This document shows positions 4,872-39,353 of a stretch of 64,000 nucleotides of DNA, one piece after another. Origin of the DNA: Brachymonas sp. (GTDB lineage: Bacteria > Pseudomonadota > Gammaproteobacteria > Burkholderiales > Burkholderiaceae_C); NCBI GenBank assembly GCA_035906235.1, contig JAMIFN010000132.1, positions 1,542 through 65,541 of the forward strand, read 5' to 3'. How positions within the stretch are numbered: the first letter of the stretch is position 1; each line of letters starts with the position of its first letter. A model generated the notes under the pieces. It saw only the letters and a program-made list of their open reading frames with translations, was not told the DNA's origin and did no database searches. Position numbers and translations under genes: made by a program.

Positions 4872-6746
4872 ATGGCGTCAAAACTCCCGCACAATGCCAA
4901 CATGATGATGCCCCCCCCCCCTGCCCCAGAATCTGCTGCCCGCGCTAAAAAGCACGACTTCCTTGGTCTTGTCGATTGGCGGCGTTTGGTGGATTGGTTG
5001 CAAGAAGATGGGGTGGTCACAGCCCAAGAACATCAGCAAACGATAGCCCGATGCGCCCAGGCAGAAAGTGCGCAAGATGCCTTGGTGCGTTTGGCCGCAA
5101 TCGGCATCGAACGCGCGCGTGACGGTAAGTCGATGGACATCGAAGACTTAACGCAATACCTCGCCGACCGCGCGGGTTTGCCATATATGCGCATCGACCC
5201 CTTGCGCGTAGATGTGGGCAAAGTGGCCGAAGCCATGAGCGCCAACTACGCTGAGCGCCACCAAATCCTGCCCGTGCAAGTCACCCCCAGCGAAGTGGTA
5301 GTGGCCACCGCCCAGCCCTTTGCTGCCGATTGGATTGCCGAAGTCGAACGCCAAACGCGTAAAAGCGTGCGCATGGTGGTGAGCAATCCACAAGACATCA
5401 CGCGCTATATCACCGAATTTTTTACGCTCGCTCGCTCGGTGCGCGCCGCCATACGCACGGGCGCAGGCAGCCAAGGCACGGTCAATTTTGAACAACTGGT
5501 TGAGCTTGGCAAAGGCAATAAGAGTCTCGATGCCAACGACCAGGGTGTGGTGCAGCTGGTCGATTGGCTGTGGCAGTACGCCTTTGACCAACGCGCCAGC
5601 GATATCCACCTTGAACCCCGGCGCGATCAGGCCGTGGTGCGTTTCCGCATCGACGGCGTGTTGCACACGGTTTACCAGCTGCCCATGGGCGTGCTGGTGG
5701 CCATGACCGCACGCATCAAACTGTTGGCGCGCATGGATGTGGTCGAACGCCGCCGCCCGCAGGACGGGCGCATCAAAACCCGCAACAGCAAGGGTGAAGA
5801 GGTGGAAATGCGCCTCTCGTCCATGCCCACGGCTTTTGGCGAGAAAATGGTGATGCGGATTTTTGACCCCGAATCGGCCGTCAAAACCCTGACACAGCTG
5901 GGCTTTAGTCGCCACGACAGCGAACGCTGGGAAAAACTCACCGCCCGCCCCAATGGCATTATTTTGGTCACAGGCCCCACAGGATCGGGTAAAACCACCA
6001 CGCTCTACTCCACACTCAAGCGCTTGGCCACCGATGCCGTGAATGTGGCCACCATCGAAGACCCGATCGAGATGATCGAGCCGGCCTTTAACCAAACCCA
6101 AGCGCAGCCGCAGCTCGATTTTGGTTTTGCTGAAGGCGTGCGCACCCTGATGCGGCAAGACCCCGACATCATCATGATTGGTGAAATTCGCGACTTGGCC
6201 ACAGCAGAAATGGCGATTCAGGCCGCGCTCACGGGGCATTTGGTGTTTTCGACCTTGCACACCAACGACGCGCCTTCGGCGATTTCGCGCTTGGTGGATT
6301 TAGGTGTGCCGCCCTATTTACTCAACGCCACCATTTTGGGCGTGCTGGCCCAGCGCCTAGTACGCGCCCTGTGCAAAGAGTGCCGCCAAAAAGACACCAC
6401 GCACGAGCAGCAAAGCCTCTTGGCCGAAGCCGTCAAACCCTGGGACATCAAGGGTGAATATCGAGGCTACCGCGCGGTGGGCTGCATCGAGTGCCGCATG
6501 ACGGGCTACCGGGGGCGCGTGGGCATTTACGAGCTGCTGAGCATCAGCGAGCAATTCAAAGCCCAGGTTGGCGAAAGCCCCGATATGGACGCGCTCCGCG
6601 CCCAAGCCATCAAAGACGGCATGCGCCCCCTGCGCTTGGCTGGCAGTCTGCGCGTGGCCGATGGCAGCACCACGCTGGAAGAAGTCTTGGCCGCCACCCC
6701 GCCTGCACCCAAAATGAAAAAAGCGCAGCCTACGGCTACGCCTTGA
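4872..6746 (+). CDS. GspE/PilB-family type II/IV secretion ATPase (orphan)
   Basis: Walker A GPTGSGKTTT, Walker B/Asp box DPDIIMIGEIRD, His box LTGHLVFSTLHTND, and a tetracysteine CKEC...CIEC motif. The N-terminal region is T2SSE_N-like. No pil or gsp partner genes are nearby. Confidence 0.85.
   Translation: MASKLPHNANMMMPPPPAPESAARAKKHDFLGLVDWRRLVDWLQEDGVVTAQEHQQTIARCAQAESAQDALVRLAAIGIERARDGKSMDIEDLTQYLADRAGLPYMRIDPLRVDVGKVAEAMSANYAERHQILPVQVTPSEVVVATAQPFAADWIAEVERQTRKSVRMVVSNPQDITRYITEFFTLARSVRAAIRTGAGSQGTVNFEQLVELGKGNKSLDANDQGVVQLVDWLWQYAFDQRASDIHLEPRRDQAVVRFRIDGVLHTVYQLPMGVLVAMTARIKLLARMDVVERRRPQDGRIKTRNSKGEEVEMRLSSMPTAFGEKMVMRIFDPESAVKTLTQLGFSRHDSERWEKLTARPNGIILVTGPTGSGKTTTLYSTLKRLATDAVNVATIEDPIEMIEPAFNQTQAQPQLDFGFAEGVRTLMRQDPDIIMIGEIRDLATAEMAIQAALTGHLVFSTLHTNDAPSAISRLVDLGVPPYLLNATILGVLAQRLVRALCKECRQKDTTHEQQSLLAEAVKPWDIKGEYRGYRAVGCIECRMTGYRGRVGIYELLSISEQFKAQVGESPDMDALRAQAIKDGMRPLRLAGSLRVADGSTTLEEVLAATPPAPKMKKAQPTATP
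4911..4921 (+). repeat. homopolymeric C11 tract inside the 5' end of the ATPase ORF
   Basis: atgatgatg-ccccccccccc-tgcc encodes MMMPPPPA. Confidence 0.9.
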
Positions 6747-19862: not shown

Positions 19863-20270
19863 CTAAAAATCAGCCAAGAAACGATGGCGCCAGCGCAAGG
19901 CGGCATCTTTATCCACCCCGCAGCGCGTAGCAACTTGGCGCAAGCTCAGGCCATCGATCAGCGCTTGGCCATAACTTAGCCAGAGTTCCCGCTTGCGCAG
20001 ATGTGCCAAGGGCGTGGCGGTGAGTGCATTGAAAGTGCGGCGACATGCCCGGCAGCGCCAGCGAGCGAGGCCGTGGCTTTGCCCCCAAGGGCGGAGATGA
20101 TCTTGGTCAGCGCGGCAGTGGGGACACTCTTGCGGTGGCGGCAAAGCCGCCACTACAGCCTGCAAGGGACTTTGCGCTGCGGCATCTAAGGCTTGCCGTA
20201 GGCGCTTACGCTGAGGCTCGGTTAGTTGTACCAAACCAGCCAAAAGTTTGCCAAAGTTGCTGCGTTCCAT
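19863..20270 (-). pseudogene. truncated IS1595-family transposase (Zn-ribbon + HTH only, DDE domain missing)
   Basis: CPHC...WRCRACRRTFNALTATPLAHLRKRELWLSYGQALIDGLSLRQVATRCGVDKDAALRWRHRFL matches the N-terminal part of IS1595-type transposases. The ORF stops where the catalytic domain would begin. Confidence 0.5.
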
Positions 20271-20347
20271 GATGCACCTCCACCAGTTGGATGCTCTTGG
20301 AATCCACTATAGGTCTGATCAATTGCGTTTGCAAAAGCTAACGCGGA

Positions 20348-20399
20348 CATAGCCATGTTTTTGGCGTTTAACGCCGAAAAACCTGCCTGGGCAGCTCAT
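20348..20399 (+). repeat. 55-bp dispersed repeat, copy 7
   Basis: catgtttttggcgtttaacgccgaaaaacctgcctgggcagctcat (1 core mismatch). Confidence 0.8.
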
Positions 20400-20465
20400 A
20401 TTTTTGATGGTACCCCCCAAAAATATCTGCTCAAAGCTGGAATATCGAGGTAGGCGGCTGAAATC

Positions 20466-20523
20466 CCAGTTTTTAATGACCGAATCAGGCTTTTAGGCCA
20501 CAAAACCTGCCTGAGCAGCTCAC
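20466..20523 (+). repeat. 55-bp dispersed repeat, copy 8
   Basis: ...caggcttttaggccacaaaacctgcctgagcagctcac (exact core). Confidence 0.85.
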
Positions 20524-20635
20524 TTTTTTGCATGAGATAAGCACCACTCTTCACTGCTGGCGTATGATCCGACGCACATGTTGCTGGGGGAGCAGCCCCA
20601 CAGCGGGTGCATTTAGGTAAGAGGGATGGGTAGAT

Positions 20636-23191
20636 ATGGATATTCCAAAGAAAATTTGGCAGCGCGACGCAGTCTGGGCTCTTCTCATAGGCGTTGCCGT
20701 TTTGTTGGTGCATCAATTCAGCTCTATGACCGATGCGTTAGAGCGCCGTTTTTACGACACCAGCAGCACACAAATTGCGCGCCAACCAGCCCCAAATATC
20801 GCCATCATCGCCATTGACGAAACCAGCATCGCCAATATCGGACGCTGGCCCTGGTCGCGCGAGATCCATGCACAGCTGATTGACAAACTGGCGCAGGCCA
20901 AAGCCAAAGTCATTGGCTACACCGTATTTTTCTCAGAGCCCCAAATCGACCCGGGCTTAGACTATGTCCGAAAAATTCAAGCAGCGATTCCGCCAGAAGT
21001 GCAGGCGCTGGAGGCATTTCAGCCCGTCAATACCCTGATTACCGAAGCGCAAACCCGCCTAAATAGCGACCACCAGTTGGCCACCAGTATCGCCACGGCT
21101 GGCAATGTCATTCTGCCCTCAGCTTTTGATCTGCAAGAGCCTATCGGCAACCCAGAAAATCCCCTTCCTGATTTTGCCCTGCGCAGCAGCGTCCCCGATA
21201 AAGAAGATACCGCTTTGCCTGTGAGCAATGCTGTCGAGCCTTTGGATATATTTGGCCGCCACGCTGCGGCAGTGGCGCATTTGGTGCAATTGCAAGACCG
21301 CGATGGCGCCGTGCGCGAAGAGCCACTTTTTGTGAATTATTATGGCCGCGGCATTCCCTCCATGTCCCTGGCTTTGGCTGCGCAGTCCCTGAATATCCCC
21401 ATTGCTGACTTGAAGCTGCACCCAGAGCAGGTGCAACTAGGGCGTCTAAAAATGCCCATCGAGGACGGCGCCATCGTGCTGCCGCAGTTCTACCAAGCCA
21501 AAGACGGCAAATTCGCCTTTCCTGTGGATTCTTTCTACGATGTTCTCAACGGCAAAATCCCCGCTAGTAAATACGCGGGCAAAATCGTCATCGTTGGCGC
21601 CACGGCAAAAGGGGTGGGTACCTTGTTTAATACCCCGGCGGCCAATAATTTTGATCCCGCGCAACTAGCTGCCTATGTCACTTCCAGCATTTTGCAAGAG
21701 CAATACATTGCCCGTCCCGCTTGGGCAGCGCTGTGCACATTTGCGGCCTTCCTTTTGGTGTTGGCTTTCCTCATGTTTGCCCTACCTAGGTTAAAAGCTG
21801 GGTTGGCCGCCGCAGTTAGTGCAGCACTTCTCGTTTTGCTATTGGGGGCTGAATACGGCGCCATGCTCGGGGCGGCTAAGTGGGTGCCTTTGGTGTTGCC
21901 AGCCGTCTTGCTGGTCTTGGGCTATGTACTGTTGACCACCAAGCGTTTTTTGTTTACCGAGGCTGGCAAAGTGCAAGCCGATGCGGAAAGCGCGGAAACC
22001 AACCGTATGATGGGTTTGGCGCTGCAAGGACAAGGCCGCTTGGACGAGGCTCTGGATCGCTATTTGCGCGTCCCCTTAGATGGCGAGAAAGGCAAAGCCG
22101 TCTTGGACAATCTCTATAGCCTGGCCTTGGACTTTGAGCGCAAACGCCAATTCAATAAAGCCCAGTCTGTGTACGAGCACATTGCCAAAGCCGCGCCACA
22201 GTTCAAAGATGTGGCTACCAAGCTCAAACGCGCCAAAAACCTGTCCGAAACGGTCATGTTAGGTGGCGGCGGCGATCACGCCGGCGGCACCTTATTGCTG
22301 GACGGTGGTGATGTTGAAAAACCCTTCTTGGGGCGCTACCAGATCGAAAAAGAGCTGGGTAAAGGTGCCATGGGCGTAGTGTATTTGGGCAAAGACCCCA
22401 AAATCGGTCGTGTCGTCGCTATTAAAACCATGGCGCTGAAAAATGAGTTCGAAGGCGAGGAGTTGGACGATGCGCGCGCGCGCTTCTTCCGCGAGGCCGA
22501 AACCGCAGGGCGTTTGCAGCACCAAAACATCGTTACCATTTTTGATGCTGGTGAAGAGCACGATTTGGCGTTTATCGCGATGGAGTTCTTAAAAGGCAAG
22601 GATTTGGTGGATTACACCAAACCCGAACGCTTGTTGCCCGTGGCACAAGTCCTGTCTATTGTTGAACGCGTGGCTTTGGCGCTGGATTACGCGCACCAGC
22701 AAGGGGTCGTTCACCGCGACATCAAGCCCGCCAACATCATGTATGAGGCCAGTAGTGACAGTGTCAAAGTCACCGATTTCGGTATTGCGCGGGTGACCGA
22801 CTCCAGCAAAACGAAAACGGGGCTGGTGCTAGGAACCCCTAGCTTCATGTCGCCAGAACAAATCGCGGGCAAACCCGTGGATGGCCGCTCCGATCTGTAC
22901 TCGCTGGGTGTGATGCTCTACCAGATGCTCACGGGACGCTTGCCTTTTGAGGCCACTAGCCTGACCGAGCTCATGTACAAAATTACCAACGCTGAGCCTG
23001 CCGATTTGCAGCAATACCGCAAAGATTTGCCGCCTGCTTATGCGCATGTCATACTGACAAGCCTTGCGAAGAAACCGGCTCAACGCTACCAAACGGGGAC
23101 CGATCTGGCCGTAGCCTTAGCCCAGCTCAGGCAGCCCATGTCGACCAGCCCCGCGGCATCTGCGCCGCCACCAGATATTTCTTTTGATTAA
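20636..23191 (+). CDS. CHASE2-sensor / TPR / Ser-Thr protein kinase (membrane receptor kinase)
   Basis: CHASE2 signature IAIDETSIANIGRWPWSREIH, then three or four TM helices around residues 365-440 and a TPR-like segment. Hanks kinase motifs are present: GKGAMGVVY, VAIK, HRDIKPANIM, DFG, SPE. Confidence 0.85.
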   Translation: MDIPKKIWQRDAVWALLIGVAVLLVHQFSSMTDALERRFYDTSSTQIARQPAPNIAIIAIDETSIANIGRWPWSREIHAQLIDKLAQAKAKVIGYTVFFSEPQIDPGLDYVRKIQAAIPPEVQALEAFQPVNTLITEAQTRLNSDHQLATSIATAGNVILPSAFDLQEPIGNPENPLPDFALRSSVPDKEDTALPVSNAVEPLDIFGRHAAAVAHLVQLQDRDGAVREEPLFVNYYGRGIPSMSLALAAQSLNIPIADLKLHPEQVQLGRLKMPIEDGAIVLPQFYQAKDGKFAFPVDSFYDVLNGKIPASKYAGKIVIVGATAKGVGTLFNTPAANNFDPAQLAAYVTSSILQEQYIARPAWAALCTFAAFLLVLAFLMFALPRLKAGLAAAVSAALLVLLLGAEYGAMLGAAKWVPLVLPAVLLVLGYVLLTTKRFLFTEAGKVQADAESAETNRMMGLALQGQGRLDEALDRYLRVPLDGEKGKAVLDNLYSLALDFERKRQFNKAQSVYEHIAKAAPQFKDVATKLKRAKNLSETVMLGGGGDHAGGTLLLDGGDVEKPFLGRYQIEKELGKGAMGVVYLGKDPKIGRVVAIKTMALKNEFEGEELDDARARFFREAETAGRLQHQNIVTIFDAGEEHDLAFIAMEFLKGKDLVDYTKPERLLPVAQVLSIVERVALALDYAHQQGVVHRDIKPANIMYEASSDSVKVTDFGIARVTDSSKTKTGLVLGTPSFMSPEQIAGKPVDGRSDLYSLGVMLYQMLTGRLPFEATSLTELMYKITNAEPADLQQYRKDLPPAYAHVILTSLAKKPAQRYQTGTDLAVALAQLRQPMSTSPAASAPPPDISFD

Positions 23192-23224
23192 CTTCCACTC
23201 ACCCTCCGCTCTGACCATTTTGCT

Positions 23225-24025
23225 ATGAAGTATGAATTTGTGGCCCTGACGGATGTTGGGCGCATGCGCCAAAACAACGAAGATTCGGTCGCCTACACGG
23301 TAGAGACGGGCGTGGCAGTTTTGGCCGATGGAATGGGCGGCTATAACGCTGGTGAAGTCGCCAGCGGTATGAGTACGGCTTTTTTGAATTCGGAACTCAG
23401 TCGGTGGGTGCAGCAGGCAGGCAAAAAAACCCATCTGAGCGACATCAAACGCGCCATCTCCATTTGTGTTGGCAATGCCAATTTATCGGTGTTCAACGCC
23501 GCCAGCAATAATGCGAGTTATCAGGGCATGGGTACCACCTTGGTGGTGGGGATGCTGCAGCAAAACCATTTCATCATTGGACATATCGGCGATTCGCGAG
23601 CCTATTTGCTGCGTGCCGAAGTGCTGCAACAGATCACCAAAGACCACTCCATGCTGCAAGAGCAAATTGATGCGGGTTTGATTACGCCAGAGCAGGCACC
23701 CTTTGCAGCCAACAAAAATCTCGTGACCCGCGCCGTTGGGGTTGGCCCATTTGTTGATGTGGAAATACACGAGCACCCCATTGAAGTCGGGGATGTCTTC
23801 ATGTTTTGTTCAGATGGCTTATCCGACATGGTTAGCCAAGACAGCATGCAGGAGGTGTTGAGAAATCACAACATTTCCTTGCAATCGCGTGCTCAAAACT
23901 TGATCGACGCCGCAAACGCAGCAGGGGGCAGGGATAATATCTCAGTCCTTATGGTCCAAGCCTTACCCGGCACAGAAAAGTCAGGGTTTGCACAGCAGCT
24001 TGGCAAACTCTTTTCTAAAAAATAA
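23225..24025 (+). CDS. PP2C-family Ser/Thr phosphatase
   Basis: TDVGRMRQNNEDS, LADGMGGYNAGEVAS and GGRDNISV motifs. Confidence 0.85.
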   Translation: MKYEFVALTDVGRMRQNNEDSVAYTVETGVAVLADGMGGYNAGEVASGMSTAFLNSELSRWVQQAGKKTHLSDIKRAISICVGNANLSVFNAASNNASYQGMGTTLVVGMLQQNHFIIGHIGDSRAYLLRAEVLQQITKDHSMLQEQIDAGLITPEQAPFAANKNLVTRAVGVGPFVDVEIHEHPIEVGDVFMFCSDGLSDMVSQDSMQEVLRNHNISLQSRAQNLIDAANAAGGRDNISVLMVQALPGTEKSGFAQQLGKLFSKK

Positions 24026-24083
24026 TCACTGCACGCCTATTCGGATTCAACATGAAAAAATGTGCAGTTCAACGAGGCTTATC

Positions 24084-24716
24084 ATGGCAAAACTGATCGT
24101 ATCTATTGACGGTGTCGTTATCCGAGAAGTTGAACTCAACAAAGAACGCACCAGTGTAGGGCGTCGCCCCTATAACGATGTGGTCATTGACAATTTGGCG
24201 GTGAGCGGCGAGCATGCCGCGCTCATTCGCGGCACTGGTGAGTTTTTTGCCGAAGACCTCAACAGCACTAACGGCTCTTACCTCAACGGCAAATCGCTCA
24301 AGCGCGAGCGTTTGCAAAACGGGGACATCCTTGAAATCGGTAAATACAAAATCAAATTTATTGGGGACGAGCCAGTCGCCAATTACGATGCCACCATGGT
24401 GATGCGCCCAGGCGCGGCGGTCGCTCCTGTGGCCGCCTCAGCGCCAGCACCAGTTGGCAATGCACTGATTCGCGTGATCTCTGGCAGCGCCGCAGGGCGT
24501 GATGTGGCATTGACAAAAGTCGTTACCACTATAGGGAAACCTGGAATTGCAGTTGCTGCTATTACCAAGCGTATTACGGGTTATGTGGTCGCACATGTGG
24601 ATGGCGATGGGGAAACCCTGCTCAATGGTAAACCCATCGGCAATGAACCTGTGGCATTGCAGTCTGGCGATACGCTGGAGCTGGCTGGTACCAAGATGCA
24701 GTTTCGCATTGAGTAA
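24084..24716 (+). CDS. FHA-domain protein (canonical N-terminal FHA + degenerate C-terminal FHA-like domain)
   Basis: The N-domain has SVGRR...VSGEHAAL...STNGSYLNG. The C-domain has TIGK...LLNGKPI...GDTLELAG but lacks the Arg/Ser/His triad. GAGG lies upstream of the ATG. Confidence 0.8.
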   Translation: MAKLIVSIDGVVIREVELNKERTSVGRRPYNDVVIDNLAVSGEHAALIRGTGEFFAEDLNSTNGSYLNGKSLKRERLQNGDILEIGKYKIKFIGDEPVANYDATMVMRPGAAVAPVAASAPAPVGNALIRVISGSAAGRDVALTKVVTTIGKPGIAVAAITKRITGYVVAHVDGDGETLLNGKPIGNEPVALQSGDTLELAGTKMQFRIE

Positions 24717-24785
24717 TGCTTAGGACAAGCATCCGCACAGCTTAAGACCTCCCTAAAACTTGGCTCTGCTTGACGACTGCGTGCG

Positions 24786-27089
24786 ATGCTTCCTACCAGC
24801 TCTACGCTAGCCCAAATGCGCCGCCACTGGCTGCGCATTGTTCTTTTGTTGCTCCCTATTGTGCTCTTGCTGTTGCAAGCGGTGCATGTTCTACCCTATG
24901 GGGCGCTCAGACACCTGGATAATTTATACAGTGACAGTCGCTTGCGACTGACGATGCCTAAGACGCGCGCTCAGGATGTCGTCATCATTGATATTGATGA
25001 GAAAAGCCTGGCTGAATTGGGTCGCTGGCCTTGGTCGCGCCAAACCATGTTGCAGTTGGTTCAGGCTGTATTTGAACAACAGCAAGCTGCGATTTTGGGT
25101 ATTGATATGGTGTTGGCCGAGCCAGACACCAGCTCGGGCCTGAGCATTTTGGAGGATCTGGCCAAAGGGGAATTTGCCCATCAGCCCGAGTTCGTGGCAC
25201 GCGTTCAAGCGTTGCAGCACAGCCTGAATTACGACGCCCAATTTGCCCAAGTCATGCAGCGTTATCCTATCGTGCTGGGCTATTACTTCAGCAGCGACCG
25301 CAATGGCGAGAAAAACGGTCAGCTGCCAGCCCCCATCTTAAGTAGCAGCGATCTGCATGGGCGCAAAATCCAGGTCAGTGCTTGGAATGGCTATGGTGCC
25401 AACTTACCGATCTTTGCCCAATCGGCACCCAGCGCAGGTTTTTTTAATGCCATCAGTGCTGGCGATGGAGTCGTCAGATCGATGCCGCTGCTGGCGCAGT
25501 ACGATGGTCAGTATTACCAATCCTTACCCTTGGCCATGCTGCGCCTCGCTACCGGGCAACCCAAGGTGCAAGCCGTTTTTCCTCCCGAGCGATTTCTGGG
25601 CAGGGGTTATCAACACCTAGCGCAACTCGATCTGAGCTACGCCAATGGTCGGACGGCAACGATTCCTGTGGATGAGCAAGTGGCCACACAGATTCCCTTT
25701 CGCGGGCCTGGCGGTGCGCAAGGAGGCTCGTTTACTTACTATTCGGCCAGCGATATTTTGAAAAATCGCACGCCTGCAGCTGCCCTCAAGGGCAAATTGG
25801 TGCTGCTGGGCACCACGGCACCAGGTTTGCTGGATTTGCGTACAACGCCCGTAGGTGATGCCTATCCTGGGGTTGAGGTCCATGCCAATGTTTTAGCAGG
25901 ATTTCTAGAAGGTAACACCCCCATACGCCCCGACTATGCTACCGGGTATGAGTTTGCCTGTCTGGTGTTGTTGGGTTTGGTCTTGTTATGGTTTCTACCG
26001 CGCCTGTCGGCCTTGCGCAGCATGGCATTGAGTGTGGGCTTGCTACTGCTCTGCGTTGGCATCAACACATGGCTCTATCTTGGCGCGCATCTTATTTTGC
26101 CACTCGCATCCTCAGCCGTCATCATCATGGTGATGCTGGTTTTGCACCTAGCCTATGGCTATTTGGTTGCCAACCGATCCAAGCGTGATTTGGCCAAACT
26201 TTTTGGCAGCTATGTGCCATCGGAGCTGGTAGATGAGATGCTCAAGGATCCTAAGCATTATTCGATGCTAGCTCGCAATCAAGAGCTGACCGTTATGTTT
26301 TGCGATATCCGTGGCTTTACCAAATTGGCGGAAGGGGCAGACCCCCTGCAAATACAGTCCCTGCTCAACCGCCTCTTTGGTCATCTGACGGAAATTATCC
26401 GTAAGCACGGCGGGACGATAGACAAATACATGGGCGACTGTGTCATGGCTTTTTGGGGCGCGCCGATGAGCCAGCCTGAGCATGCCCAAATTGCCCTCCA
26501 TTGCGCCCACGAAATCATCACCAGCCTGCCGCGTATCAATAGCGATTTAAAGGCATCTGGCCTGATGCCATCCCAGTATCACGATTTAGGGGTGAGTATT
26601 GCGTTAAATACTGGCGTGATGTGCGTCGGCAATATGGGCACTGAGCTGCGCCAAGCCTACACCGTTATCGGCGACGAGGTCAATTTAGCAGCCCGCATCG
26701 AGCCACTGAGCCGACTGTACGCTGTCGATATTGTTGCCACCAATGTGGTGCGCAAACACAACCCAGATTGGGTATGGCAAGAGCTGGACCTCGTGCAAGT
26801 CAAAGGTCGCCAAGCGCCAGAGCGGATTTTTACCCCGATCGCCTTGCGTTCGGCATTGGGCGATGCGCAACGCAATGAACTCAAAGTGTGGTCGCAATTT
26901 GTCCAAGCCTACCGTCAGGGGCAGGTGGACAGTTGCGAGATGCTGCTGTTTAATTTGCAACGCCTGCATCCAGCCTCTGCGTTGTACACCCTGTATGCAG
27001 AACGCTTAGCGCTACTGCGTAAAGACCCCCCAGAAAATTGGCAGGGTGTTGCCATCATGGGGCCGAGCAAATATTCCCCTTTGGTTTAA
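24786..27089 (+). CDS. CHASE2-sensor class III adenylate/guanylate cyclase
   Basis: CHASE2 signature IDIDEKSLAELGRWPWSRQTM, then TM helices around residues 385-465. The cyclase core has TVMFCDIRGFT, IDKYMGDCVMAFWG and TVIGDEVNLAARIE. Confidence 0.85.
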   Translation: MLPTSSTLAQMRRHWLRIVLLLLPIVLLLLQAVHVLPYGALRHLDNLYSDSRLRLTMPKTRAQDVVIIDIDEKSLAELGRWPWSRQTMLQLVQAVFEQQQAAILGIDMVLAEPDTSSGLSILEDLAKGEFAHQPEFVARVQALQHSLNYDAQFAQVMQRYPIVLGYYFSSDRNGEKNGQLPAPILSSSDLHGRKIQVSAWNGYGANLPIFAQSAPSAGFFNAISAGDGVVRSMPLLAQYDGQYYQSLPLAMLRLATGQPKVQAVFPPERFLGRGYQHLAQLDLSYANGRTATIPVDEQVATQIPFRGPGGAQGGSFTYYSASDILKNRTPAAALKGKLVLLGTTAPGLLDLRTTPVGDAYPGVEVHANVLAGFLEGNTPIRPDYATGYEFACLVLLGLVLLWFLPRLSALRSMALSVGLLLLCVGINTWLYLGAHLILPLASSAVIIMVMLVLHLAYGYLVANRSKRDLAKLFGSYVPSELVDEMLKDPKHYSMLARNQELTVMFCDIRGFTKLAEGADPLQIQSLLNRLFGHLTEIIRKHGGTIDKYMGDCVMAFWGAPMSQPEHAQIALHCAHEIITSLPRINSDLKASGLMPSQYHDLGVSIALNTGVMCVGNMGTELRQAYTVIGDEVNLAARIEPLSRLYAVDIVATNVVRKHNPDWVWQELDLVQVKGRQAPERIFTPIALRSALGDAQRNELKVWSQFVQAYRQGQVDSCEMLLFNLQRLHPASALYTLYAERLALLRKDPPENWQGVAIMGPSKYSPLV

Positions 27090-27108
27090 AGCGCGCCTAG
27101 GTTGACTT

Positions 27109-27930
27109 ATGCAGCTACAAGTTCTTGGATGCTCCGGCGCCATTGCTCAAGGGGTGTATACCAGTTCTTTTTTGATCGATGCTGCCATCGCTTTGGATTC
27201 GGGTACGGGGCTGGGGCAATTAACGCTGGCGCAAATGCTGCAGCTCGATCACATCTTCATCACCCATACCCATCTTGATCACATCGCCGCGCTGCCGCTT
27301 CTATTAGACAGCGTGATGAGCATCCGTACCCAAACAGCGCGCCCGCCTGTGCAGGTGTATGCCCTGCCTGAAACCCTGTATGCATTGCGCAAACATATTT
27401 TCAACCGCATTATTTGGCCTGATTTCACGGCTTTGCCTTCGCGCGATAAACCTGTGCTGAACTTCGTGCCCGTCAGACTGGGGCAAGTCGTCACCTTCGA
27501 CGGCTTGCCGCACCAGGTGCAAGTCTTGCCAGCGCAGCACACCGTGGCCGCCGCCGCCTATGCCGTACGCCCAGCAGCCCATGCGCCTGCCTTGGTCTAT
27601 ACCGGTGATACCGGCCCCAACCCCCTGCTTTGGCAAAATTTAGCACAGCTGGATGTGGCAGGTTTAATCATTGAAGCTGCATTCAGCAACCAAGAATCTG
27701 GCTTGGCACGAGCCGCCCTGCATCTGTGCCCTAATAGTTTGCTTGGCGAACTGCGCAATATCCCTGCCAACAGCCATTACCCCATCTATATCACCCACAC
27801 CAAGCCTGCACAGGCACAGCAAATCCAAGCAGAGGTGAAGGCGCTGCTGCAGCAAGACGCGCAGCTGACCAATCTGTTGAGCCAACACCCCTTGCATTGG
27901 TTGCAATGTGGGCAAACAATCCGTATTTAG
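27109..27930 (+). CDS. class II (MBL-fold) 3',5'-cyclic-nucleotide phosphodiesterase
   Basis: VLGCSG...LDSGTG...ITHTHLDHIAALPLLLDS resembles the HxHLDH signature of CpdP/PDE1-type enzymes. It starts 19 bp downstream of the cyclase. Confidence 0.65.
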   Translation: MQLQVLGCSGAIAQGVYTSSFLIDAAIALDSGTGLGQLTLAQMLQLDHIFITHTHLDHIAALPLLLDSVMSIRTQTARPPVQVYALPETLYALRKHIFNRIIWPDFTALPSRDKPVLNFVPVRLGQVVTFDGLPHQVQVLPAQHTVAAAAYAVRPAAHAPALVYTGDTGPNPLLWQNLAQLDVAGLIIEAAFSNQESGLARAALHLCPNSLLGELRNIPANSHYPIYITHTKPAQAQQIQAEVKALLQQDAQLTNLLSQHPLHWLQCGQTIRI

Positions 27931-30165: not shown

Positions 30166-32328
30166 CACCGCCGCGGGATCCACATCCAGCGCCCAGCGCA
30201 GCAAGCCCGGACTGCGTATGCTGACAAATTGGCTGCGCCAGCGCGTGAGGAATTTTTGCAGGGCGGCGCGGTTCTCCGCCTCGACCAAAAGCTGGGCGCG
30301 TTCGGTATTGGCGACGCGCTGCATGGCCATGGGCACGGGGGCGTAGAGCATGACGCCGCCCTCGGCCACCAGCGCCTGCCCCAGATCGCAAGCGGCTTGC
30401 AAAAAGGCTTGCGCCGCCTCTTGCGTGCGTGCCTCAGCCCGCAGCAGGGCCTGAAAGCTAAAGGGCGGCATGGCCGCCATGTGCCGCTCTTGCAATTGGC
30501 TGCTGGCAAAGCCCGCCCAATCGTGGCGCATCAGCCAGGTGAACAGCGGGTGCTCGGGGTTAAAGGTTTGCACCAGCATTTGCGCCTTGCCGCTTAAATC
30601 GGCATCGCGCCCAGCACGGCCAGCCGCTTGCATCAGCAGGGCAGCACTGCGTTCAGGGGCGCGAAAGTCGGCGGCAAACAGGCCGCCATCGGGGTTGATG
30701 GCCGCCACCAGGGTGATGCGGCGAAAGTCGTGCCCCTTGGCCACCATTTGCGTGCCCACCAACACATCCACCGCGCCGCTGTGCAGCTGCTCTAGGTGCT
30801 GGCTCAGGCCGTCTTTGCCTTTAACGCTGTCGGCGTCCATGCGCAGCACACGGGCGGGCTGCCCATCGGGGCGCTGCACGCCAGCTAGCAGGGCGCTGAT
30901 TTCTTCTTCCAATTTTTCGGTGCCACGGCCTAGGGGGGCAATGTCTAAATTGCCGCATTCGGGGCAGGCGCGGGGCGTGGCTTGGGCATCGCCGCAGTGG
31001 TGGCAGCGCAGGCTGCGGTCGATTTTGTGAAAAACCTGAAAAGCGCTGCAATGGTTGCAGGCGCTTTTCCAGCCGCATTCGCCGCAGCTGAGCACGGGCG
31101 CATAGCCACGGCGGTTGAGCAACAACAGGGCTTGCTCGCCGCGCGCAATGCGCTCTTGCAAAGCAGCCAGCAAATAGCTGGAGATAACTGTGCCCTTGGG
31201 CTGCAAACGCATATCGACCAAGCGCACGGGGGTGAGTTGGCCCGCGCCTATGCGCTCGGGCAATTCTTGCAACTGATAGCGCCCGCTTTGCGCGGCCTGC
31301 CAGCTTTCTAAGCTGGGCGTGGCCGAGCCTAAAACCACGGTGCAGCTGCCTGCCGCCACGCTGTGCAGGCGCGCACTTTCTAGTTTTGCGCGGTACACCG
31401 CCAAATCGCGGGCTGAATGGCGTGCGCCGTCTTGCGCTTTGTAGCTGGCGTCGTGTTCTTCATCAACCACAATCAAACGCAAATCCACCAGGCTGGCAAA
31501 CACCGCCAAGCGCGTGCCCAGCACAATGCGTGCGCCCCCGCTGTGCGCCGCCAGCCAGGCGCTTGATCGCTCAGCCGCGGTCATGCCGCTGTGCATGCTG
31601 ACGACCGCCGCCGCGCCCAAATGGGCAAAGCGGGCGCGAAACTGCCCTAAGAGTTGGGGCGTGAGGTTGATCTCGGGCACCAGCACCAGCACCTGCGCCG
31701 TCGCTGCCGCCGCCAGCGTGGCCGCAGCGGCCTGCATATACACCTCGGTCTTGCCGCTGCCTGTGCGCCCAAACAGCAGCAGGGGTTTGCTGTCGGTTTG
31801 GCTTTGTGCGGCAGTGATGGCTTGCAGGGCAGCTGTTTGCGCGGGGTTTAAGGTTTTTTCAGGCTGTTTTTGCGTGTTTAAGGCGGAAACGCTGCCTGAG
31901 CAGCTCTCATTTTTGATGCTGTTTTCTGGATTTTCGAGCTTGGCGAGCTTTTTGAGCTTGCGTGCCAATTGCTCGGCACTCCAGTCTTTCAGCTGGGGCG
32001 GCAAGGCGGCCAGCGCCACTTCGCCCAAGCTGCGCTGGTAGTAACGGGCGGCAAAGGCGACCAGCTCCCGCCAGCTGGCAGGCAGGGGGGCAATGCCATC
32101 CAAAACCGTGCTGATGGCTTTGAGTTTGCCCACATCCAGCCCATCGGCCGTGGTGTGCGCGGTATCGGCAGCCTTGGCCTGCCCCCAGACCAGGCCCAGC
32201 ACCTCGCGCCGCCCCAAAGGCACCCGCACCAAGCTGCCCAACGCTAAGGGCGCAGGGTGGGTATAACTGAGCAGGGCGGGCAGGCGGCTATGCGCTGGCA
32301 GCGCCACCAAAACGCTGAAAACAGGCAC
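30163..32328 (-). CDS. priA: primosomal replication-restart helicase PriA
   Basis: Walker A GRTGSGKTEVY, DEEHD box, Cys-rich Zn region (CGECGW..CNHCS...CHHCG...CPECG) and a winged-helix N-terminus. Confidence 0.9.
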   Translation of the reverse strand: MPVFSVLVALPAHSRLPALLSYTHPAPLALGSLVRVPLGRREVLGLVWGQAKAADTAHTTADGLDVGKLKAISTVLDGIAPLPASWRELVAFAARYYQRSLGEVALAALPPQLKDWSAEQLARKLKKLAKLENPENSIKNESCSGSVSALNTQKQPEKTLNPAQTAALQAITAAQSQTDSKPLLLFGRTGSGKTEVYMQAAAATLAAAATAQVLVLVPEINLTPQLLGQFRARFAHLGAAAVVSMHSGMTAAERSSAWLAAHSGGARIVLGTRLAVFASLVDLRLIVVDEEHDASYKAQDGARHSARDLAVYRAKLESARLHSVAAGSCTVVLGSATPSLESWQAAQSGRYQLQELPERIGAGQLTPVRLVDMRLQPKGTVISSYLLAALQERIARGEQALLLLNRRGYAPVLSCGECGWKSACNHCSAFQVFHKIDRSLRCHHCGDAQATPRACPECGNLDIAPLGRGTEKLEEEISALLAGVQRPDGQPARVLRMDADSVKGKDGLSQHLEQLHSGAVDVLVGTQMVAKGHDFRRITLVAAINPDGGLFAADFRAPERSAALLMQAAGRAGRDADLSGKAQMLVQTFNPEHPLFTWLMRHDWAGFASSQLQERHMAAMPPFSFQALLRAEARTQEAAQAFLQAACDLGQALVAEGGVMLYAPVPMAMQRVANTERAQLLVEAENRAALQKFLTRWRSQFVSIRSPGLLRWALDVDPAAV
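31856..31915 (+). repeat. 55-bp dispersed repeat, copy 10 (inside the priA CDS)
   Basis: ttttcaggctgtttttgcgtgtttaaggcggaaacgctgcctgagcagctctc. On the priA sense strand it is translated as ..ESCSGSVSALNTQKQPEK.. Confidence 0.7.
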
Positions 32329-36292: not shown

Positions 36293-38107
36293 TTAATCAT
36301 CCACTTGCAAGATGGCCAGGAAGGCCTCTTGCGGCACTTCCACACTGCCGATTTGCTTCATGCGTTTTTTACCGGCTTTTTGTTTTTCTAACAGTTTGCG
36401 TTTGCGCGTGATGTCGCCGCCATAGCATTTGGCCAAGACATTTTTGCGCATGGCTTTGACGGTTTCGCGCGCGATGATGTTGCCGCCAATGGCTGCTTGA
36501 ATCGCCACATCGAACATTTGGCGGTCGATGATTTCGCGCATTTTGGCGACCACGGCGCGGCCACGGTATTGCGACTGGCTGCGGTGCACGATGATGGACA
36601 GGGCATCGACGCGCTCGCCATTGAGCATGATGTCCACCTTGACCACATCCGAGGCGCGGTATTCTTTGAACTCGTAATCCATGCTGGCGTAACCACGGCT
36701 GACGGATTTGAGTTTGTCGAAAAAGTCCAGCACGATTTCGCCCAGGGGCATGTCATAAGTCAGCACCACCTGGCGGCCTTTGTAGGCCATATTCAGCTGC
36801 ATGCCGCGCTTTTGGTTGCACAGGGTCATGACGGGGCCGACATATTCTTGCGGCATAAAGATATGCACTTCCACAATCGGCTCGCGAATCTCTTCGATTT
36901 TGCCGACTTCAGGCATTTTGCTGGGGTTTTCCACCATCAGCGTTTCGGGCTCTTTGCCGCCCGTGACCACCTCGTACACCACGCTGGGCGCGGTGGTGAT
37001 CAGGTCTTGGTCAAACTCGCGCTCCAGGCGCTCTTGCACAATTTCCATGTGCAAAAGACCCAGGAAACCGCAGCGGAAACCAAAGCCCAGCGCCTGCGAC
37101 ACCTCAGGCTCGTATTGCAGCGCAGCGTCATTTAACTTCAGCTTTTCCAGCGCGTCGCGCAGCTGATCGTATTCGCTGGCTTCTACGGGGTAAAGCCCCG
37201 CAAAAACTTGGGGCTGCACTTGCTTGAAACCTGGCAAGGCCACTTCGGCAGGACCCAGGTTGTTCGGCATTTTTTTCTCTAGCGTGACGGTGTCGCCCAC
37301 CTTGGCCGCTTGCAGCTCTTTGATGCCGCAAATGATGTAGCCCACTTCGCCCGCGTGCAGGGCGTTGCGCGGCTGGTCGGCGGGGGTAAAAACACCAATG
37401 CTATTGGCCTCATACGCCGCACCGGTGGCCATCAGTTTGATGCGTTCGTTTTTCTTCAAACTGCCATCGACCACACGCACCAGCATGACGACGCCGACAT
37501 AGGTATCAAACCAGCTGTCGATAATCATGGCGCGCAGCGGCGCATCAGGATTGCCCCGGGGCGGCGGCACCTTGGCCACCACCATTTCCAAAATTTCGTC
37601 TATGCCCATGCCGGTTTTGGCTGAGCAGGGGATGGCCTCGCTGGCGTCAATGCCGATGACATCTTCGACCTCTTTGCGCGCGCCCTCAGGGTCGGCCTGG
37701 GGCAAATCCATTTTGTTGAGCACGGTAAAAACCTCGACGCCCAAATCAATGGCGGTGTAGCAATTGGCCACGGTTTGCGCCTCAACGCCTTGGCTGGCAT
37801 CGACCACCAGCAATGCGCCCTCGCAGGCCGAGAGGCTGCGCGAGACTTCGTAGCTAAAGTCCACATGCCCAGGGGTGTCGATCAGATTGAGGTTGTAGAT
37901 TTGTCCGTCTTTGGCCTTGTACTGCAGCGCGGCGGTTTGTGCCTTGATGGTGATGCCGCGCTCTTTTTCAATGTCCATGGAGTCGAGCACCTGCGCACTC
38001 ATTTCCCGATCAGACAGGCCGCCGCAGCGCGAAATCAGGCGATCGGCCAAGGTGGATTTGCCGTGGTCGATGTGCGCGATGATGGAAAAGTTGCGAATGT
38101 GCTGCAT
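36293..38107 (-). CDS. lepA: translation elongation factor 4 (LepA)
   Basis: [24 protein letters not shown]..., DTPGHVDF and NKMD. The track ORF runs on to 38872, but that extension is a non-coding read-through. Confidence 0.9.
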
Positions 38108-38216
38108 GGGCCAAAAAAGAGAAAAGGAAAAAAGCAGGCGCAGACCCGCGCCATGAGCGCTGGCAGGCCAAGGGGCGAATTTTAAGCCAGTAGCCGGCAG
38201 CTCATCGCCCTGCATA

Positions 38217-39353
38217 ATGCAGGCCATGTCCGCCCCAGCCTCTATCGACAGCTCGACCACCAGTCCCACCGCTAACCCTGTCAGCAACCTGACGAGCCAC
38301 CATGCCTTGCCGCCGGCTTTTGCACGCGGCTTGGGCTTGGGCAAAAACCTGTTTGTCATCGTTAGCGACGAAGCCCTGCTGGCGCAAGAGGCTGCTGATG
38401 CCCTACGCCAAGAGGCTAGAGCACGCGGCTTTAGCGAGCGCCTGTGGTTTACCGTCAGCGGTGCGCACTTTAAATGGGGCGAAGTGCTGGCCAGCACCCA
38501 AGCGCAAAGCCTGTTTGCCGATAAGCAGATTTTGGAACTGCGCATCCCCAGCGGCAAACCCGGCAAAGACGGTGGCGAAGCCCTGCAAGCCTTGGCCGCC
38601 AGCTGTGCGAACGCACCCGATGTGCTGCTGCTGATCACCCTGCCTAAGCTTGACCAGCAGGGCAAAAAAAGCGCCTGGTTTTTGGCGCTGCAAGGCGCTG
38701 GTGTGGTGCTGGATATTCCTGTTGTGGAACGCCGCCAACTGCCGGCGTGGATAGCCCAACGCCTAGCAGCGCAAGGGCAAAGCCCTATGCCGGGGCAGGA
38801 AGGCGAGCGCAGTCTGCAATGGCTGGCTGATCGTTTAGAGGGCAATTTGCTGGCTGCGCACCAAGAAATCATGAAACTCGCCCTGCTCTACCCGCAAGAG
38901 GCTTTGGGTTTTGAGCAAATCAGTGCCAGCGTCGCCAGCGTGGCGCGTTACGATGTTTTTAAACTCTCTGAGGCTGTGCTGGCTGGCCAGCTGCTGCGTA
39001 CCCAGCGCATGTTGGCGGGGCTGCAGGCCGAAGGCGAGGCCGAGGTGCTGGTGCACTGGGCGCTGGCTGAAGATATTCGCGCCCTGCATCGGGTACGCCA
39101 GGCTTTGGATGCGGGGCAACCCTTGCCTGCGGCGATGCAGGCGGCGCGGGTTTGGGGCGCTAAACAAAAGTTGATTGAGCGCTTGGCGCCCCGCCTGAGC
39201 CTGGCACAAAGCACGGCGCTGTTACACGCGGCGCAGCAGGTGGACGGCATCGTCAAAGGGCTGCCGCAAAAAGATTGGCCCAGCCAGGGCTGGGCCGCGT
39301 TAGAGCGCTTGGCCATGCAACTGTGCACCGCTGCTGCGCCCAAGAGCGCTTGA
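38217..39353 (+). CDS. holA: DNA polymerase III delta subunit
   Basis: Length and pattern fit HolA (..[21 protein letters not shown]..., [24 protein letters not shown]). The start is uncertain and there may be an N-terminal extension. Confidence 0.7.

Follow-up and report, generated by a model that had tools for sequence, protein, structure and literature searches.

A five-gene CHASE2 kinase and putative adenylate cyclase module of Brachymonas sp. and its relation to a type IV pilus-linked locus of Betaproteobacteria

A 64-kb stretch of DNA from Brachymonas sp., which is referred to in its entirety as the window below, carries a five-gene module at positions 20636-27930 of the plus strand. 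The five genes are separated by 33, 58, 69 and 19 bp and lie on the same strand, as had been pointed out in a first-pass annotation made from the sequence alone. Judging from the proteins encoded, the locus carries a putative writer, eraser and reader of phosphothreonine (pThr) as well as a putative writer and eraser of cyclic AMP (cAMP). The genes, with the grounds for each assignment, are as follows (FHA, forkhead-associated; MBL, metallo-beta-lactamase; cNMP, cyclic nucleotide monophosphate).

20636-23191, plus strand: CHASE2 receptor Ser/Thr kinase, 851 aa (Pfam, motifs)
23225-24025, plus strand: PP2C/PPM Ser/Thr phosphatase, 266 aa (Pfam, NCBIfam, motifs)
24084-24716, plus strand: tandem-FHA adaptor, 210 aa (Pfam, predicted structure, profile comparison)
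24786-27089, plus strand: CHASE2 receptor, putative class IIIb adenylate cyclase, 767 aa (Pfam, residues)
27109-27930, plus strand: putative MBL-fold, class II-like cNMP phosphodiesterase (PDE), 273 aa (Pfam, PDB match, motifs)

Profile searches against Pfam and NCBIfam agreed with the domains previously assigned to the five proteins, all of which keep their catalytic or binding motifs intact. The kinase (CHASE2, E 2.4e-51; Pkinase, E 1.2e-54) is composed of an N-terminal transmembrane (TM) helix (aa 7-25), an extracytoplasmic CHASE2 region (aa 20-378; nt 20693-21769), three TM helices (aa 365-435), a very strongly conserved helical/TPR-like segment and linker (aa 440-567; nt 21953-22336), and a Hanks kinase domain (aa 568-818; nt 22337-23089). 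The GxGxxG, VAIK, HRDxKxxN, DFG and SPE motifs (aa 575, 594, 693, 714 and 739, respectively) are kept across 71 orthologues, so that the protein can be classified as a Hanks-type kinase. In the CHASE2-TM-TPR kinase of the first-pass annotation, the CHASE2, TM and kinase parts are sound, but the TPR part is weak (TPR_2, E 0.0036, under the cutoff). The pre-kinase linker contains two invariant segments, SE-T539-VML and GG-T552-LLLD. The string S-E-T539-V-M-L-G-G is common to the window and Azospira, and resembles a motif in the linker of the FHA adaptor (see below).

The kinase and the cyclase share their receptor portion. A hydropathy scan gave the same layout for both proteins, namely one N-terminal TM helix, ~330 extracytoplasmic residues, three TM helices and then the cytoplasmic output domain, and this 1+3 arrangement together with the match to PF05226 assigns both to the CHASE2 family. 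Over 422 aa, the CHASE2 regions of the kinase and the cyclase share 28% identity (E 7e-28), which bears out the proposal that the two sensors are paralogous, and the signature D(E)xS(I/L)Ax(I/L)GRWPWSR was indeed present in both. The phosphatase matched Pfam PP2C_2 (E 5e-14) and the NCBIfam model for Stp1/IreP PP2C phosphatases (NF033484; 240 bits vs the cutoff of 230). As its metal-binding motifs NED, DGMGG, GDS, SDG and DN are present and conserved, we assign it to the Stp1/IreP type of PP2C/PPM phosphatases.

The cyclase (CHASE2, E 1.8e-53; Guanylate_cyc, E 1.7e-21) has its first TM helix at aa 18-36, CHASE2 at aa 33-399 (nt 24882-25982), further TM helices at aa 392-453, the cyclase domain at aa 497-678 (nt 26274-26819), and a conserved C-terminal helical extension at aa 679-767. 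The closest solved cyclases were Synechocystis guanylate cyclase Cya2, Pseudomonas aeruginosa CyaB and Spirulina CyaC. The metal-binding Asp residues (D507 and D551), the pair Lys547/Thr626, and the transition-state residues N633 and R637 are invariant in 82 orthologues, and the alignment to Cya2 (2W01) places a Lys in the window protein where Cya2 has Glu. Under the established rules for class III cyclases, a Lys/Thr pair denotes a class IIIb adenylate cyclase. The residues of the 767-aa protein fit this subclass, and the enzyme is predicted, on its Lys/Thr specificity, to convert ATP to cAMP. The same adenine-specifying pair led us to reject a guanylate or a pyrimidine cyclase.

The gene next to the cyclase encodes a protein matching Lactamase_B_2 (E 1.3e-12) and PDEase_II (PF02112; E 2.1e-11, 44 bits vs the cutoff of 23.7), with the signature H53-T-H-L-D-H58 and an FNxIWPD motif. 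Its best match in PDB was the yeast class II phosphodiesterase PDE1 (E 6.5e-11). The class II profile aligns at only 66 of 340 positions, and orthologues also match Pfam Anti-Pycsar_Apyc1. Because of this partial alignment and these Apyc1 matches, the safest label for the 273-aa protein appears to be an MBL-fold, class II-like cNMP phosphodiesterase.

The remaining protein, the tandem-FHA adaptor, deserves a closer description. For its gene, the list of open reading frames (ORFs) gives a TTG start at 23988, and the publicly deposited 210-aa product begins at ATG 24084. Matches to FHA models (PF00498, E 7.5e-23) are limited to the N-terminal 95 residues, of which the nearest relatives are GarA and OdhI. 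G26, R27, S41, H44 and N63 are invariant in this domain, which therefore has the residues of a pThr reader. The C-terminal half (aa 125-210) has GK instead of GR in the alignment, and its SxxH loop is deleted. Nevertheless, the two halves appeared to be related in a profile-profile comparison (87% probability, E 3.8e-6), and the last 89 residues, when modelled with AlphaFold (pLDDT 88), gave TM scores of 0.80-0.84 to the FHA domains of OdhI and GarA (TMq 0.84 to OdhI). Thus, the earlier description as a two-domain FHA protein holds for both folds, although the second one is degenerate and has lost the pThr-binding residues. This domain is predicted to be unable to bind pThr in the canonical manner.

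The linker between the two FHA domains (aa 96-124) is predicted to be disordered at 97-123 in the full-length model, and carries a single conserved island, Y/F-D/E-x-T104-M-V-x-R/K-P-G, amid otherwise variable sequence. All 120 Rhodocyclales-type homologues counted (120 of 120) carry the T104 motif, and in Comamonadaceae it hardly varies; these two groups are the ones for which the counts are reliable. The tandem-FHA family comprises 1006 clusters (50% identity) at E <= 1e-30. Of the 150 representatives of the family, many of those inspected by eye have an F/Y-E-K-T-M-like motif and some do not. In distant members (P0314, P0316), some proteins possess a C-terminal hydrophobic tail, which is probably transmembrane, and others possess linkers of more than 150 residues. 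Thus, the adaptor exists in membrane-anchored and soluble forms. Two identities for the window protein were tried and rejected. It is not a GarA/OdhI orthologue, as (i) it scored 60 bits against the NCBIfam OdhI model (NF041660; cutoff 200), and (ii) its FHA domain begins at residue 1 and is followed by a second FHA-like domain. It is not a TagH/Fha1-type protein either (TIGR03354, 46 bits vs the cutoff of 120).

The cyclase has thousands of homologues. Scanning one genome per species, we detected at least 579 loci with a relative of the cyclase, and the best 80 of them were examined by tblastn and ORF calling. These 80 loci were all of Comamonadaceae type (Polaromonas, Ramlibacter, Variovorax, Rhodoferax, Hydrogenophaga, Caenimonas and others), and a branch of FHA proteins with 40% identity led to Rhodocyclales, namely Azospira sp. 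I13, an Accumulibacter and a third genome. The kinase, PP2C, FHA, cyclase and PDE genes appeared in one order and on one strand, with the complete core in 66 of 83 loci. The incomplete cores are due to contig ends, apart from the kinase losses described below and one locus with no PDE gene (L020). Median gaps between the genes were 11, 43, 56 and 14 bp. The core proteins of the window share 47-62% identity with those of Variovorax terrae and 43-56% with those of Azospira. In dozens of genera belonging to the two orders, the locus is found 3' of sucCD-terC, and it behaves as core genome. Adjacency of the FHA and cyclase genes was seen in every locus examined. Whether the five genes co-occur in other genomes had been left to a gene-neighbourhood analysis. 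They do so in the same order in ~80 Comamonadaceae species and in Rhodocyclales, and our full-text literature searches yielded no description of the combined locus, in agreement with the earlier impression that it matches no characterised pathway.

The genes that follow the PDE gene in the relatives place the five-gene core in a wider context. In 60 of the 65 loci with enough downstream flank, the PDE gene is followed by a gene for an ~800-aa ATPase of the PilB/GspE superfamily with GAF, MshEN and T2SSE domains, at a median gap of -4 bp (i.e., a stop-start overlap). A pilin gene lies ~180 bp past this ATPase gene, often accompanied by PglL/Wzy_C genes for pilin glycosylation. In Rhodocyclales, the order is sucCD-terC-kinase-PP2C-FHA-CHASE2 cyclase-PDE-[cNMP_binding+rhodanese]-[GAF-MshEN-T2SSE]-[GAF-HD-GYP]-pilin. 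Because the relatives carry the pilus ATPase and pilin directly after the PDE gene, the five genes of the window are the input half of a larger type IV pilus-linked locus, detached from its outputs.

The GAF domain of the ATPase is a candidate cAMP reader. By far the best solved match of its profile was to the cAMP-binding tandem GAFs of Anabaena CyaB2 (E 3.7e-30), followed by a GAF-HD-GYP protein and the cNMP-binding GAFs of PDE10A, PDE2A, PDE5 and PDE6, and the segments IAG, DxY and D-x-x-S-G-Y-R-T are invariant. Our literature searches gave no account of a PilB-type ATPase whose GAF domain serves as a cAMP receptor, and the paper on the Ramlibacter genome goes no further than to note three PilB paralogues. 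Rhodocyclales have further candidates. Between the PDE and ATPase genes, they encode a protein with a CAP-type cNMP-binding domain (FGE...RRNAS) and a rhodanese domain (L088:13798-14886; L089:13851-14912; L090:13752-14831), and we know of no characterised function for this pair of domains. Their GAF-HD-GYP enzyme bears the HHExxDGxGYP motif, and Tlr0485, as cited in 10.1101/2021.11.05.467447, provides a precedent for a cAMP-activated GAF-HD-GYP protein. As reconstructed from these sequences, the ancestral betaproteobacterial locus probably comprised the five-gene core, up to three candidate cAMP readers and the pilin gene. A module linked to type IV pili is a better description of the system than an orphan.

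Two further observations concern pilus ATPases. At the position of the GAF-PilB gene, two loci of Comamonadaceae carry toxin-type genes, HipA in L079 (13453-14691) and Fic/DOC in L049 (13433-13912), with the pilin gene kept downstream. The window itself contains an orphan type IV pilus ATPase with MshEN and T2SSE domains at 4872-6746 (plus strand), between pth and an inositol monophosphatase gene. This protein matched the NCBIfam TfpB equivalog (873 bits vs the cutoff of 850) and shares only 33% identity with the GAF-PilB ATPase of the related loci. It lacks a GAF domain, and no family was matched by its first ~100 residues.

In the lineage of the window, the locus has been trimmed and moved. 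The nearest relatives (L002, L004, L086 and L087; 71-88% identity) still show sucCD/argC-like synteny on the upstream side, and rpmH-rnpA-yidC takes the place of the pilus genes downstream. In L085 and L084 (80% and 70% FHA identity, respectively), the kinase gene has gone as well, and the PP2C, FHA, cyclase and PDE genes remain (L085:7984-12593 and L084:9146-13764, with no kinase remnant). A kinase deletion was also found in L052 of Polaromonas, in which a remnant of ~100 aa persists (L052:7154-9228), the pilus genes are kept, and the PP2C, FHA, cyclase and PDE genes are intact. Because the kinase and the readers were lost in sister lineages, PP2C-FHA-cyclase-PDE is the invariant unit, and the kinase and readers are more labile. 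The kinase is the least fixed member of the module, with losses in several lineages. Within the window, the module has shifted again, beside an insertion sequence (IS) fragment, and a TerC gene lies 27 kb off on the opposite strand. Rather than a mobile island, the module is a relocated piece of a chromosomal locus ancestrally situated 3' of sucCD-terC.

In the window, Pfam scans covered every ORF of at least 150 aa not overlapping a larger family-matched ORF, plus a few shorter ones. Among the ORFs scanned, we found no type VI secretion system (T6SS) genes and no cNMP-binding, CRP or GAF proteins, in agreement with the earlier note on T6SS genes and cNMP-binding effectors, and no output genes of the module were found across all 64 kb. 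The absence of a cNMP effector is a derived trait of the clade of the window only, and other carriers of the locus have the candidate readers. By the definition of the sucCD-terC-linked locus, Brachymonas sp. has the core, whereas the ATPase and pilin outputs are absent in the window and its nearest relatives. When compared with L086, which belongs to the PilB-less clade, all five genes gave ratios of nonsynonymous to synonymous substitution rates (dN/dS) of 0.07-0.12, values that are qualitative only as dS was saturated. These ratios suggest that the module in Brachymonas sp. is under purifying selection.

How might the five proteins work together? We give somewhat better than an even chance to the reading in which they form one operon-like module and the two paralogous envelope sensors act on cAMP in the following manner. 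The activated CHASE2 kinase would autophosphorylate its invariant pre-kinase linker (SE-T539-VML and/or T552), and the N-terminal FHA domain of the adaptor would dock on the phosphorylated linker. The kinase would then phosphorylate T104 in the adaptor linker (x-T-M-V-x-R/K-P-G), operating a GarA/OdhI-like switch, and the degenerate second FHA domain would make the neighbouring CHASE2 cyclase, or else the phosphodiesterase, more or less active. The PP2C phosphatase would reset the phospho-switch, and the phosphodiesterase would reset cAMP. In the ancestral locus, cAMP would be read by the GAF domain fused to the PilB-like type IV pilus assembly ATPase, encoded beside the major pilin gene. In Rhodocyclales, cAMP would in addition act through the CAP-rhodanese protein and through the GAF-HD-GYP hydrolase of cyclic di-GMP (c-di-GMP), and the hydrolase could feed the MshEN domain of the ATPase. 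In the Brachymonas clade, the module has been cut off from these readers and would act on effectors encoded elsewhere. Given the GAF-PilB ATPase and pilin encoded in cis in the ancestral locus, the system most likely gates pilus assembly and surface behaviour. FHA-mediated coupling of pThr to cAMP, as first proposed from the gene content, is plausible, and a partner of the adaptor inside the cAMP pair is best argued by the FHA-cyclase adjacency, which persists without the kinase and PilB.

It is attractive to go one step further and consider the whole as an undescribed pathway, in which a Hanks kinase and PP2C phosphatase act via a tandem-FHA adaptor to gate a CHASE2 cyclase, the GAF domain of the pilus ATPase reads cAMP, the GAF-HD-GYP enzyme of Rhodocyclales lowers c-di-GMP at MshEN, and the window genes constitute a sensor core with rewired output. 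We put this forward tentatively, as a proposal somewhat short of an even chance.

Several observations weigh against the proposed mechanism. No candidate reader was found within 10 kb in the nearest relatives, or within ~20-36 kb in the window, and the pilus link may not hold in Brachymonas sp. itself because all candidate readers are missing from its flanks. The kinase is dispensable in L052, L084 and L085, which weakens a strict chain from kinase to cyclase. Likewise, no invariant threonine was found among the orthologues in the cytoplasmic portions of the cyclase outside its catalytic core, so that its direct phosphorylation is unsupported and the target of the adaptor is a guess. The saturation of dS bears on the argument from selection as well. 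In the module, a scan for promoters and terminators gave counts no higher than those in shuffled sequence. As for the reader, the segments IAG, DxY and D-x-x-S-G-Y-R-T would correspond to the lining of the nucleotide pocket in GAF-B of PDE2A, and this correspondence is a lead only.

Some of these points would sit well with two independent modules sharing one locus, in which the kinase, PP2C and FHA proteins act directly on the pilus machinery or the envelope (e.g., through phosphorylation of the PilB-like ATPase or of pilus platform proteins), the cyclase and PDE provide a separate cAMP input to the same target, and the FHA protein and cyclase are uncoupled. If this is the case, the kinase may go while the rest stays, and no conserved phospho-acceptor would be needed in the cyclase outside its catalytic core, where none was seen. 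The N-terminus of the GAF-PilB ATPase moreover has a conserved RG-x-[TS]-FE segment as a possible phospho-site, and control by kinase/phosphatase/FHA sets has precedents for type IV filament machines in Sulfolobus ArnA, which is among the PDB matches of the FHA domain, and for T6SS in PpkA/PppA/Fha1. Nevertheless, the FHA gene was next to the cyclase gene in all loci that we examined, including L084 and L085, in which the FHA and PP2C proteins would have only the cyclase and PDE as local partners, and the order is fixed with very short gaps across two orders. We thus regard two independent modules as unlikely, albeit worth serious consideration, and retain the single operon-like module as the preferred reading.

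The history of the Brachymonas clade raises the question of whether the module is a decaying remnant, without current function since the loss of the pilus outputs. Output genes are absent within ±10 kb in the clade and across the 64 kb of the window, the kinase was lost in sister lineages, and the module moved beside an IS fragment. On the other hand, the five ORFs are intact with every catalytic motif preserved, the dN/dS values against L086, the nearest full relative, are low as given above, and identical proteins occur on many metagenome contigs, so that decay is improbable. We consider still less credible an anti-phage or mobile defence island borne by an IS and composed of a Pycsar-like cyclase, an Apyc1-like phosphodiesterase and a defence kinase. 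The module has a GC content (0.53-0.54) below that of its flanks (0.56-0.62), a fragment of IS1/IS1595 type is its immediate upstream neighbour, PADLOC gave PD-T4-6/mad6 for the kinase domain and PycC for the cyclase domain, and the orthologous phosphodiesterases match Anti-Pycsar_Apyc1, as mentioned above. However, the PADLOC matches cover generic catalytic domains only and include neither the FHA protein nor the PDE. Dozens of genera from two orders have the locus at one and the same chromosomal site behind sucCD-terC, both enzymes bear an envelope-sensor CHASE2, the cyclase has the Lys/Thr pair and no pyrimidine-cyclase signature, and there is no toxic effector gene. With no effector gene, fixed synteny and generic PADLOC matches, the module was not assigned to Pycsar or kinase defence systems.

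Parts of the locus have counterparts in known systems, and as a whole it may work like a composite of several of them. Contrary to the earlier remark that CHASE2 has no established ligand, the CHASE2 cyclases CyaD1, CyaD2 and CyaK of Sinorhizobium meliloti, which act with NsrA and Clr, have a described input, uL2 sensed via NsrA (PMC13001267). These proteins resemble the Brachymonas cyclase in combining a periplasmic CHASE2 with membrane helices and a class III cyclase and, as predicted for the latter, in making cAMP on an envelope-side cue, but they have no kinase, PP2C or FHA partners, their input passes through the outer-membrane protein NsrA, and their output is the CRP-type regulator Clr. 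No NsrA-like or Clr-like genes were found among the window ORFs scanned. A conserved cluster in Campylobacterota (CHASE2-cyclase/PDE/FecR/TPR; PMC9239204) also has a CHASE2 cyclase beside a cAMP phosphodiesterase; the partners in Brachymonas sp. are instead a Hanks kinase, a PP2C phosphatase and a tandem-FHA protein, and the Campylobacterota cluster is without a pilus ATPase.

As for the pThr side, the PpkA-PppA-Fha1 pathway of T6SS likewise brings together a membrane-bound Hanks kinase, PP2C and FHA proteins and switches a machine. The window differs from it in having a short tandem-FHA protein, not TagH/Fha1, and a CHASE2 sensor on the kinase. Since the FHA protein is not TagH and there are no T6SS genes in the window ORFs scanned or in 90 related loci, the T6SS threonine-phosphorylation pathway was rejected. 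GarA/OdhI of Actinobacteria, small regulators consisting of FHA alone, which are toggled by Hanks kinases and bind their own pThr intramolecularly, are the closest solved relatives of the N-terminal FHA domain in both sequence and fold. In those proteins, an ETTS phospho-acceptor lies N-terminal to a single FHA domain and the targets are enzymes of the tricarboxylic acid cycle, whereas the candidate Thr here is C-terminal to the FHA domain, in the linker. Control of a nucleotide cyclase by an FHA domain is found in the Bdellovibrio FHA-GGDEF protein DgcB (PMC6733907), which is among the structural matches for both FHA domains. FHA and diguanylate cyclase domains form one polypeptide in DgcB, whereas the window has a separate adaptor beside a putative class III adenylate cyclase.

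On the output side, cAMP-binding GAF proteins (Anabaena CyaB2 and Thermosynechococcus Tlr0485) and c-di-GMP-binding MshEN pilus ATPases (PMC5013675) have counterparts in the ancestral locus, where both the MshEN-T2SSE ATPase and the HD-GYP enzyme among the outputs possess a CyaB2-like GAF; the GAF-bearing output genes are absent from the window. The Sulfolobus archaellum network (the FHA protein ArnA, the kinases ArnC/D, and PP2A) similarly places Hanks kinases, a phosphatase and an FHA protein on a type IV filament machine, but is archaeal, acts on transcription and protein complexes, and has no cyclic nucleotide limb. The first-pass interpretation thus keeps its five domain calls and their co-occurrence, and needs correction with respect to the orphan or island status, the TPR domain, the fixity of the kinase and the input of CHASE2.

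The surroundings of the module in the window are mainly housekeeping genes, including pth, parB, xseA, pepP, priA, era, rnc, lepB, lepA, ssb, ribBA and acrAB. Features outside the five genes are as follows.

20271-20635, plus strand: leader 5' of the kinase gene, 365 bp, with two copies of a REP-like repeat
19863-20270, minus strand: IS1/IS1595-type zinc-ribbon/helix-turn-helix (HTH) fragment, 134 aa (context, outside the system)
6779, 6868, 10774, 11146, 15309, 16176, 20378 and 20502, both strands: 21-nt repeat copies (window positions)
30111, 31887, 36243, 40677, 44490, 54956, 59705 and 62467, both strands: 21-nt repeat copies, continued (window positions)

The zinc-ribbon/HTH protein directly upstream of the module has no transposase catalytic domain. 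It is probably an IS remnant marking a rearrangement, and its position beside the module is consistent with relocation of the module in the Brachymonas lineage. The dispersed 21-nt repeat, AAAACCTGCCTGAGCAGCT(AT/CA), occurs in 16 copies on both strands of the window, vs 0 expected by chance, and looks like a REP-type (repetitive extragenic palindromic) element. Nearly all copies are intergenic, and the copy at 31887, with three mismatches, lies inside the priA ORF. Two copies (20378-20398 and 20502-20522) fall in the leader of the kinase gene, in the plus strand of which we found no sigma-70 consensus. Apart from the module, we noticed that the GTPase domain of the 859-aa LepA ORF (36293-38872, minus strand) does not begin until residue 257. 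A plus-strand ORF (38217-39353) with domains of DNA polymerase III delta (holA) overlaps the N-terminal extension, and the true start of lepA is probably internal to the 859-aa ORF.

All parts of the locus come from known families; our searches gave no account of the fixed coupling of a pThr set, a cAMP set and a cAMP-type GAF on a pilus motor. If the proposed pathway is genuine, pili would be controlled post-translationally by second messengers, with pThr, cAMP and c-di-GMP integrated in one operon, and the locus would offer a natural case of cross-talk among the three. Under the proposed mechanism, the assembly ATPase would be a direct target of cAMP, without the mediation of a transcription factor such as CRP/Vfr. 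The compact operon with two receptors also offers a genetic route to the signals perceived by CHASE2. The locus is present in hundreds of species of Comamonadaceae and Rhodocyclales, including abundant wastewater and freshwater bacteria such as Accumulibacter, Polaromonas, Ramlibacter and Variovorax, and surface attachment and floc formation are important for carriers of this type.

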